Assembly (NCBI RefSeq): GCF_000020225.1
Contig: NC_010655.1
Span: 750,001 to 782,000 of the forward strand
DNA: 32,000 bases
Direction of reading: 5' to 3'
Source of the DNA: Akkermansia muciniphila ATCC BAA-835
GTDB lineage: Bacteria; Verrucomicrobiota; Verrucomicrobiia; Verrucomicrobiales; Akkermansiaceae
Part shown: piece after piece, positions 13,367-14,929 of the stretch
Layout of the letters: every line of letters begins with the position of its first letter
Position numbering within the stretch: the first letter of the stretch is position 1
Translations under genes and position numbers: made by a program
The notes under the pieces: generated by a model
Database searches by the model: none
Told to the model about the DNA's origin: nothing
What the model saw: the letters and a program-made list of their open reading frames with translations, nothing else

Positions 13367-14929
13367 ATGCCCCCAGACTCCTCCATTACGCCCAATCCCC
13401 AGGCACGCCCCTGCGCAACGCTTGCATTGCGCCCGGGCTGGCTTGCTTCCGGCCTGGGCGTCGGCGCCAGAACCGGGCTGCATGCGGAACTCACGGCTTA
13501 TTCCATCGTTTTCTGGGGGCACGATGCCCTTCCGGCGCAGGATATGGTTGCCTGGCAGCAGGAAAAGGCACGCCTCATGGCGGAGATGTCCCTGGCCGGG
13601 CAAAAGGGCGCCTATGGCAAGCTGGGCGCATTGTCTTCCGGCCTGACCCGGGCTTTTGACGACCATATTGAGCTTTCTTTACGCGCGGGCGCGGGTACGC
13701 ACGTCCGCACGGAGGAGGTGCAGGCCCTGGCAAACGGGCTCGCGGAAGAAACGTCCTGCCGCGTGCTGGCGTGGAGCGTCTGCCGCAACCATGTGCATGT
13801 GATTGCGGAGCTGACGGAGGAAAAAGGAGTGGATGAACTGGTCTGCTCCTGGAAGGCGCTGGCCCCCTCCATGAACTGGGAAGACGCGTACCACACGGAA
13901 GCCCTGAAAGCCCGGGAAGCCGCGGCCAGGGTAGACGCCCTGATTTCCGAACTGGGGGATGACGCCGCTGCCGCCGTTGATGCGGAAGCGGACGGGGCAG
14001 ACTCCGGAAACGGCTTCCGGCACATTACCGTGCTGCTGCATGAGACGGTGGACATGCTGAAGGCAGGACCCGGCAAATTCATCGTGGACTGCACGCTTGG
14101 CGGAGGCGGCCATACGGAACTTCTGCTGGAGCAGGGAGCCACTGTCTGGGGCATTGACCGCGATGCGGACGCCCGCCGCGCCGCCATGCTCAGGCTGGCG
14201 CGCTTCGGTTCCCGTTTCAAAGTCCTCGCCGGCAACTTCCAGGACGTGGAAAGCATTCTTTCCCAGCAGGGGGTTTCCCGGGTGGACGGGCTGCTGGCGG
14301 ACCTGGGCGTTTCCTCCCACCAGCTTGACACCGCCTCCCGCGGCTTTTCCTTTAGGGAAGACGGCCCTCTGGACATGCGGATGGATACCCGCGCCGCTCT
14401 CTCTGCCCGGAACCTGGTGAATGAGGCCCCGGAAGAAGAAATCGCAAATATCCTCTGGCAATTCGGCGAGGAACGCGCTTCCCGCGCCATTGCCCGCGCC
14501 ATGGTGAAAGCCCGTGCCCAGGCACCCATCACCACGACCGCACAGCTTGCCCGCATCGTGGAATCCGTCCTGCCGCGCAAAGGAAGACAACACCCCGGCA
14601 CCCGCACGTTCCAGGCCCTGAGAATAGCGGTCAACGGCGAGCTGGATGCCCTGGACGCTCTGCTGGATTCCTCCGTGCGTCTGCTCGGGCAGGGGGGGCG
14701 CATGGCCGTCATCACCTTCCACAGCCTGGAAGACCGCAGGGTCAAGCAGTTCTTCGACCTCCGGAGCCGTCCGGAAATAGACCGCCCGGAATGGCCGGCA
14801 CCCCGTCCCAACCCGGATTACTGCTTCCGCCCGCTTTCCCGCAAACCCGTCACTGCGGGAGAAGAAGAACTTTCAACCAACCCCCGTTCCCGCAGCGCCA
14901 AGTTGCGCGGCGTGGAAAAAATCATCTGA
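13367..14929 (+). CDS. rsmH: 16S rRNA (cytosine1402-N4)-methyltransferase RsmH with an atypical N-terminal extension of about 215 aa
   Basis: From residue 217 onward the core is canonical RsmH: HITVLLHETVDML, DCTLGGGGHTELLL, DLGVSSHQLD, RGFSFREDGPLDMRM, ITFHSLEDRRVKQFF, NPRSRSAKLRGVEK. The frame is open from ATG 13367, which lies 10 nt after the mraZ stop. The only later ATG upstream of the core is at 13871. Confidence 0.85.
   Translation: MPPDSSITPNPQARPCATLALRPGWLASGLGVGARTGLHAELTAYSIVFWGHDALPAQDMVAWQQEKARLMAEMSLAGQKGAYGKLGALSSGLTRAFDDHIELSLRAGAGTHVRTEEVQALANGLAEETSCRVLAWSVCRNHVHVIAELTEEKGVDELVCSWKALAPSMNWEDAYHTEALKAREAAARVDALISELGDDAAAAVDAEADGADSGNGFRHITVLLHETVDMLKAGPGKFIVDCTLGGGGHTELLLEQGATVWGIDRDADARRAAMLRLARFGSRFKVLAGNFQDVESILSQQGVSRVDGLLADLGVSSHQLDTASRGFSFREDGPLDMRMDTRAALSARNLVNEAPEEEIANILWQFGEERASRAIARAMVKARAQAPITTTAQLARIVESVLPRKGRQHPGTRTFQALRIAVNGELDALDALLDSSVRLLGQGGRMAVITFHSLEDRRVKQFFDLRSRPEIDRPEWPAPRPNPDYCFRPLSRKPVTAGEEELSTNPRSRSAKLRGVEKII

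Follow-up and report, generated by a model that had tools for sequence, protein, structure and literature searches.

Y1 transposases of the TnpA-Y1 family are recognised by two motifs. The HuH motif consists of two histidines separated by a hydrophobic residue, which provide two of the three metal ligands, and the Y motif contains the nucleophilic tyrosine, followed about four residues on by the third metal ligand (Y---NP in class 2; N119 in the Escherichia coli TnpA-REP) (PMC6006769). The same survey of the HUH superfamily describes no methyltransferase fusion and mentions neither Verrucomicrobia nor Akkermansia. The gene analysed here encodes RsmH (MraW), the 16S rRNA m4C1402 methyltransferase, of Akkermansia muciniphila ATCC BAA-835, and it lies in a window of 32,000 nucleotides (NC_010655.1, positions 750,001 to 782,000), a term that here means the whole stretch of DNA analysed, within which positions are counted. 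Its product has 520 residues, the first 216 of which stand ahead of the methyltransferase core. The comparisons show that residues ~40-180 of this extension form a folded domain whose ancestor was a Y1/HUH tyrosine transposase of class 2, of the REP-associated (RAYT-like) type; an acidic linker comes after it. Taking identity and evolutionary history jointly, we hold it to be very probable that a RAYT-like HUH domain was fused in frame to RsmH long ago, is translated and under selection, and has lost its nucleophile.

A likeness of the extension to Y1/HUH proteins of the IS200/RAYT type had been proposed in a preliminary description of this DNA, made from the letters alone, and family models, profile searches, profile alignment and structural comparison all agree with it. 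The HUH-transposase models PF01797, NF033573 and NF047646 match residues ~114-177, all below their cut-offs. Among 20 diverse extensions of fused relatives, PF01797 was the only Pfam family matched by more than one (6/20; best E 2.9e-5), and the recurrent NCBIfam matches were to RAYT and IS200 models only. A profile of the Akkermansia extension, searched exhaustively against 1.84 billion representative proteins, found 46 proteins. Some of them were pieces of the same gene or RsmH fusions of greater divergence; beyond these, the profile reached genuine Y1_Tnp proteins at library-wide E values of 6e-6 to 8e-4 over profile positions ~40-166. When 20 of these matches were scanned against Pfam, PF01797 was hit by 16, of which 13 exceeded the gathering score; the other four were two RsmH fusions (P0031, P0039) and two fragments without a match (P0036, P0037). 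Five free-standing relatives scored 73-82 bits on the REP-associated tyrosine transposase model (cut-off 80). These free-standing proteins carry NHVH, WQ and Y(V/I/A)..NP, and are therefore class-2-like. Aligned to them by hhalign, the fused extensions gave a probability of 98.8% (E 1e-16, 133 columns), and a broader fused set, picked through the RsmH core only, gave 99.4% (E 2e-21, 145 columns). A further word-indexed search with a profile of divergent extensions returned nothing new. The elements that correspond between the free-standing proteins and the window protein are, in order:

β1, free-standing 'Y.VTFRL', window 'YSIVFW'
motif, free-standing 'DSLP', window 'DALP'
motif, free-standing 'W..ER', window 'W..EK'
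motif, free-standing 'LDAG.G', window 'LRAGAG'
motif, free-standing 'AWCVMPNHVHVV', window 'AWSVCRNHVHVI'
motif, free-standing 'SWKS', window 'SWKA'
motif, free-standing 'WQ.EYY', window 'WEDAYH'

The predicted structure points in the same direction, namely to the HUH fold, a β-sheet that bears HUH on a central strand and has helices at its flanks. An AlphaFold (AF2) model built from a 25-sequence alignment, with a predicted local distance difference test score (pLDDT) of 80.8 and a predicted template modelling score of 0.74, has the topology β-α-α-α-β-β-α-β-α; residues 40-190 mostly exceed a pLDDT of 90 (84-94 in blocks of 10 residues), and the score falls below 50 near the end of the linker. 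When this model was compared with the PDB by Foldseek, the top 19 matches were all Y1 transposases (TnpA of IS200, IS608, ISDra2 and Sulfolobus tokodaii, and the E. coli RAYT 4ER8), with probabilities of 0.80-0.97.

Several results weigh against this descent, or at least against the figures given for it. On PF01797 the extension alone scores 20.6 bits (E 5e-4) and the full protein 18.8, with a gathering score of 23, and among ten fused relatives scanned at full length P0101 alone reaches 23.0; on the RAYT equivalog NF047646 the window protein scores 17.4 bits, below the threshold of 80. Searching the PDB by sequence, whether the query was the single sequence or the profile, yielded no HUH protein and only unrelated weak matches. 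The hhalign E values are optimistic, because the comparison set was drawn from matches of the extension profile, which introduces circularity. The Foldseek E values are only ~1e-2, with TM-scores of 0.27-0.33 on the query and 0.40-0.50 on the target, and the model leans to the HUH fold because its alignment held true Y1_Tnp sequences, so that it is best taken as supporting rather than independent evidence for the predicted fold. A model made from six Akkermansia sequences only (pLDDT 39) was an all-helix artefact and was discarded. The sub-threshold scores of single sequences and the empty PDB searches are what would be expected if the likeness were chance or convergence around the pentapeptide NHVHV, an explanation that we find scarcely credible: the match covers 133-150 columns, from β1 through 'DALP', 'W..ER', 'LDAG.G', the HUH strand and 'SWK' to 'W(Q/E)..Y', it also holds for fused extensions without HUH (many in the broader set), and its E values were obtained library-wide.

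Free-standing-type Y1_Tnp domains were also met within open reading frames of housekeeping enzymes (P0047, P0054, P0061, P0051 and P0057; valyl-tRNA synthetase, GcpE/IspG, ETF). Short repeats that have been translated, for example 'GRDARVT', 'GILPACPEGVSP' and 'HGRDAHAT', lie on either side of them. Gene callers may have read through REP-like repeats here, or the domains may be insertions within genes.

The fused gene is a single open reading frame with an ATG start, and its parts, together with the gene directly upstream, are as follows:

12887..13357, plus strand: mraZ, directly upstream of rsmH (PF02381 MraZ, E 9.6e-11)
13367..14929, plus strand: complete fused gene, HUH-derived domain, acidic linker and RsmH methyltransferase, 520 residues plus stop
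13367..13483, plus strand: N-terminal leader, residues 1-39, variable, found in the Akkermansia branch only and missing from the distal clade (omega 0.07-0.62; pLDDT 44-77)
13484..13906, plus strand: Y1/HUH-transposase-derived domain, residues 40-180, with β1, three helices, the HUH-bearing β-hairpin, a helix and a β-strand
13595..13624, plus strand: AGQKGAYGKL, residues 77-86, the most conserved motif of the fused family, consensus AG.KGaRGkL
13787..13801, plus strand: NHVHV, residues 141-145, the retained HUH metal-binding motif, aligned with PNHVHV of the free-standing family
13877..13894, plus strand: WEDAYH, residues 171-176, remnant of the family motif 'WQ..YY', preceded by a 13-residue deletion relative to free-standing relatives
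13907..14014, plus strand: linker, residues 181-216, very acidic, helical and fast-evolving, sitting where helix αD and the Y---NP motif would be, without tyrosine
14015..14929, plus strand: canonical RsmH core (16S rRNA m4C1402 methyltransferase), residues 217-520 plus stop (PF01795, TIGR00006)

The core matches TIGR00006 over residues 217-518 with 310.5 bits (cut-off 154.3) and PF01795 up to residue ~519 with an E value of 1.1e-102. From this equivalog-level match, the window protein would be expected to methylate 16S rRNA at m4C1402 in 30S subunits. The open reading frame and the start of both model matches agree with the preliminary description, which had the core begin at codon 217 of a frame open from ATG 13367, just after mraZ; the spacer from the mraZ stop to this ATG is 9 nt. 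It had also given fewer than about 15 residues as usual before the core motif of RsmH, and the unfused RsmH proteins P0114 and P0117 have 4-14 residues ahead of the H-x-P-V-L motif, so that a leader of 216 residues is far outside the usual range. The three peptides that it quoted are present, NHVHV among them at the position given in the list. Its statement that 13871 is the only other upstream ATG was mistaken, as in-frame ATGs also occur at 13544, 13577 and 13586 (codons 60, 71 and 74).

In all six Akkermansia/Akkermansiaceae reference genomes compared (L001-L006; extension identity 69-95%), an unbroken frame runs from a conserved MPP(D/N) start into the RsmH core, and indels preserve this frame across very divergent relatives. 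The ratio of nonsynonymous to synonymous substitution rates (omega), estimated by the Nei-Gojobori method over synonymous divergences (dS) of up to 1-2, is 0.15-0.35 for the whole extension and 0.04-0.10 for the RsmH core; within the extension it is 0.12-0.28 for codons 1-168, 0.07-0.39 for codons 44-176, up to ~0.65 for the last 40 codons (177-216) and 0.19-0.66 for the linker (residues 181-216). The GC content of the three codon positions follows the same pattern in the extension (0.70/0.51/0.73) as in the core (0.69/0.48/0.75). This pattern of substitution shows the first ~216 codons of rsmH behaving as a translated part of RsmH that is under selection. Some annotation favours the contrary view, that RsmH starts just upstream of its core and that the preceding 600 nt are a leader or regulatory region: in an NCBI record from Akkermansia sp. 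(P0076), RsmH has 326 residues and begins with a Leu codon that lies ~20 residues ahead of the core, near residue 196, and no strong Shine-Dalgarno sequence is visible ahead of ATG 13367. Such a start would leave ~590 nt between mraZ and rsmH unannotated, and the 520-residue form is called by other sources; the P0027 cluster counts 1700 members. An untranslated leader is also hard to reconcile with purifying selection in frame, frame-keeping indels, core-like codon-position GC, significant homology at the protein level and a confidently predicted fold. The internal methionine codons are not conserved either, and promoter-like or terminator-like signals inside the extension are none beyond chance. 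The preliminary description had named a start at or after 13871, together with unselected codons 1-168, as one of the findings that would overturn it; the Met169 encoded there is replaced by Val, Ala or Ile in three of the reference genomes (L004-L006), and codons 1-168 have the low omega given above. An untranslated extension is thus extremely improbable.

The translated and selected domain has, as judged from its residues, lost the chemistry of its ancestors. H142, V143 and H144 are kept in the window protein, and NHVHV is invariant in the sequences of the Akkermansia branch. By contrast, there is no tyrosine in residues 177-216 of the window protein or in the other aligned Akkermansia sequences, and NP is likewise missing from the window protein; in an ungapped alignment the tyrosine column falls on L192, which agrees with the leucine that the preliminary description had placed there. 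A segment of 13 residues after SWKA, ahead of the lost Y---NP motif, is deleted. Across 110 fused relatives, both histidines of the HUH motif are present in 38, one in 8 and none in 64, and 97 of the 110 have no tyrosine in the segment matching the Y motif. With Y---NP gone, and with it the nucleophilic tyrosine and the third metal ligand, the alignments show the domain to be, by prediction, catalytically dead; the missing tyrosine predicts no activity in metal-dependent cleavage and joining of single-stranded DNA through a 5'-phosphotyrosine. The same comparison shows the HUH histidines persisting in Akkermansia and apparently dispensable across the family, as if active-site residues had been free to decay since the fusion.

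One might argue from the invariant NHVHV that, at least in Akkermansia, the domain is a still-active HUH endonuclease or transposase coupling single-stranded DNA cleavage to RsmH. A subclade of fused RsmH (P0122, P0129, P0130 and P0153; 64-67% core identity) lends itself to this argument, as it keeps both HUH histidines and a conserved tyrosine near the expected helix, in the context 'Y...V.AD.SD' on the C-terminal helix. Its tyrosine, however, aligns three positions before the catalytic column, and the subclade may represent a less decayed state of the domain. The absence of tyrosine from the Akkermansia sequences, the missing motif with its third metal ligand (PMC6006769), the deletion before it, the loss of HUH in 64 relatives and the lack of REP-like substrates within the window all speak against an active enzyme, which we regard as very unlikely.

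In the place of the catalytic residues, the fused family has conserved motifs of its own. Over 65 representatives, the most conserved positions are Y45, W50, A54-L55, W63, A77-G78, K80-G81, G84, L86, L89, L121-A122, L149, G151-E152, W162, P167 and W171; A77 and G78 are invariant or nearly so, W171 is nearly invariant, and K80, G81, G84 and L86 are conserved. The family's own motifs are AG.KG.RGKL, L.GE.G.D and W....P...W. The first is part of the helical hairpin that separates β1 from the core, and it adjoins a 4-residue insertion relative to the free-standing family. As new conserved motifs stand in place of the catalytic ones, a new, non-catalytic role is indicated.

The fusion is not confined to the genome of the window. 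Relatives were sought with no more than the RsmH core as query. Of the 120 closest, nearly all had 480-521 residues, at core identities from 100% down to 63%, and there was no case of deletion of the extension among these 120. About 110 distinct relatives carry it, and their N-terminal regions align to the window extension at 18-40% identity; their source names, where given, are Akkermansia sp. or Akkermansiaceae. A distant member of 493 residues (P0039) is found in the same mraZ-rsmH-ftsL-ftsI-murE-murF context, and the order of mraZ and then fused rsmH also occurs at the distant locus L007 and at L009. A scan of metagenomes with the distal subclade gave 14 loci, and the domain was in frame with the core in all 12 that were informative (L012-L023). 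The fusion is therefore the standard RsmH architecture of a broad clade and no oddity of a single genome. It is old: every Akkermansia-type genome examined has the domain inserted after mraZ and ahead of the RsmH core, as do far wider relatives. The preliminary description had called the fusion unusual; it is not peculiar to one genome.

A more sceptical interpretation is that a RAYT-like gene was inserted between mraZ and rsmH, became fused, and has been kept as a functionless relic, a passive spacer that provides a start codon and translational coupling to mraZ. The decay of the catalytic motifs fits such an origin, as does the fast evolution of the linker and the N-terminal leader, with omega of up to 0.6; three loci tolerate a low-complexity insert of ~40-45 residues within the domain, and mraW is dispensable in Verrucomicrobium spinosum (PMC12283558). 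A passive spacer would hardly be expected, though, to keep omega at the values of residues 44-176 across the dS range covered, to persist in ~110 lineages down to 18-30% extension identity without one deletion among the closest relatives, or to have its most conserved positions in family-specific motifs not found in free-standing transposases. We consider a functionless relic unlikely, and the selected, non-catalytic domain remains the preferred explanation.

The three loci with inserts (L020, L021 and L023, at ~2750-2900 in each) are related to each other. Their insert, rich in Ala, Glu and Ser, lies between the 'E.PLA' segment and the former HUH strand, in a loop that can evidently tolerate large insertions, since they carry one there. 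Interruptions of the fused frame were seen in other metagenomic loci. In L009 (775-777) and L010, which have the same sequence and come from two independent metagenome assemblies, mraZ, the HUH-like domain and rsmH are present, but an in-frame TAG divides the domain ('...EDAAA') from the core ('PFKHITVL...'), with no ATG afterwards; a gene split in two, readthrough of the stop or a nonsense mutation of recent date could each account for this. In L008 (1521-1523; contig GCA_965302605.1 of a metagenome-assembled genome), an in-frame TAG stands in fused rsmH at the conserved Lys of 'PRKGRQHP' and is probably a nonsense mutation or an assembly error; recoding of the stop codon was considered and is unsupported, as other genes of that contig end in TAG in the ordinary way. 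What looked like fusions to ArdA, to a phage scaffold protein or to serine dehydratase (P0010, P0013-16 and P0024) were set aside as metagenome assembly chimeras because the sequence switches abruptly in mid-protein.

As to what the domain does, charge gives one indication. Its median isoelectric point is 5.0 (net charge -9 in the window protein); the linker has 4.05 (net -6) and the RsmH core 9.5, and the median of the free-standing relatives is 6.3. Plain binding of nucleic acid is disfavoured because domain and linker are acidic, and a search of the window for REP-like hairpin repeats or a repeated palindromic family gave nothing above chance. Many rRNA methyltransferases have an accessory domain at the N-terminus, and nucleic-acid hairpins are bound by the ancestral HUH scaffold; both count for an accessory docking or regulatory domain that would serve RsmH on its 30S substrate, a proposal that we put forward tentatively, at somewhat less than even chances. 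The old hairpin-binding scaffold might have been reused to contact rRNA or basic ribosomal proteins; alternatively, the acidic surface and linker could modulate, or autoinhibit, the basic catalytic core, and an interaction with MraZ would also be compatible with the acidity. It is a more speculative idea, and an unlikely one, that through the dead HUH module RsmH has gained a further specificity, or a regulatory link, not available to the canonical enzyme. The m4C methyltransferase might, for example, be steered to structured single-stranded nucleic acid beyond C1402 (hairpin single-stranded DNA or RNA), or a transposase-derived adaptor might tie RsmH physically to MraZ or to the division machinery and thereby coordinate ribosome maturation with expression of the division and cell wall (dcw) cluster. 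A link of MraW to DNA methylation is cited in a study of the dcw cluster of V. spinosum, in which MraW is annotated with PF01795 only and the fusion is not mentioned (PMC12283558).

Fused rsmH comes second in the dcw cluster, following mraZ and preceding ftsL/ftsI, the standard position of RsmH. Downstream of it the cluster continues with an ftsL-like open reading frame, ftsI, murE, murF, mraY, murD, a LysM protein, ftsW, murG, murC-murB, ddl and ftsQ. The LysM-domain protein between murD and ftsW has 266 residues (22777-23577, plus strand). MurC and MurB are fused into a protein of 793 residues (25774-28155, plus strand) with Mur ligase domains, FAD_binding_4 and MurB_C, and a MurCB fusion is also mentioned for V. 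spinosum (PMC12283558). The FtsQ-like gene (29161-30111) is followed by recA (30338-31378, plus strand) rather than by ftsA or ftsZ. Upstream of the cluster, an open reading frame of 314 residues (10314-11258, plus strand) matches the Mac-1 domain (IdeS-like cysteine protease) and has a weak C-terminal match to the PEP-CTERM motif, slightly under the threshold (20.0 bits; Pfam cut-off 20.7).

Searches of the literature on RsmH/MraW together with Akkermansia, an N-terminal extension or a transposase found no description of the fusion. Pfam and NCBIfam leave the domain unannotated, and at least one NCBI record (P0076) removes it by its downstream start. Domesticated fusions of transposases to host proteins are well known in eukaryotes and rarely documented in bacteria, and RAYTs have mostly been discussed as free-standing domesticated genes. 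Here an enzyme of ribosome modification that is nearly universal has captured an HUH domain in frame; the domain has lost its nucleophile, gained new conserved motifs and been retained throughout a clade that includes A. muciniphila, a much-studied human gut commensal. This offers a genetically tractable system for learning how an HUH fold can be put to new use once its catalysis is lost, and the RsmH of this clade may have properties that are not predicted from E. coli.

Among known systems, the closest is RAYT/TnpA-REP (class 2 TnpA-Y1; NF047646; 4ER8), with which the extension shares the order Y.VTFRL, D(S/A)LP, W..ER, LDAG.G, AW.V.PNHVHV, SWK and WQ..YY and the predicted fold, 4ER8 being among the top structural matches. 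It differs in that Y---NP, the catalytic tyrosine and the asparagine that serves as third metal ligand are missing, 13 residues are deleted after 'SWK' and four are inserted by AG.KG.RGKL; furthermore, it is fused to RsmH and has no REP repeats nearby in the window. The TnpA proteins of IS200/IS605 (PF01797; 2VJV, 2A6M, 2XMA, 2F4F and 2EC2) share the HUH fold and give the best Foldseek matches, with probabilities of up to 0.97, but they are mobile-element enzymes of ~130-150 residues with a Y---Q motif (PMC6006769), whereas the extension is immobile, lacks a nucleophile and has β1 set apart from the core by a long helical insertion. Canonical RsmH/MraW (~300-320 residues) is matched by residues 217-520 of the window protein, a full-length, high-scoring RsmH in the standard place of the dcw cluster; what sets this clade apart is 170-216 extra residues forming a separate domain. 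In eukaryotes, SETMAR, in which a SET methyltransferase is fused to a mariner transposase, is a domesticated fusion of the same sort. CSB-PGBD3 (PMC2268245) likewise has a transposase-derived domain that was captured in frame by a host gene and selected, with its transposition chemistry impaired; fusions of that type are eukaryotic, arise via splicing and are of DDE (RNase-H-fold) origin, whereas the one described here is bacterial, is made directly in frame and comes from an HUH ancestor.

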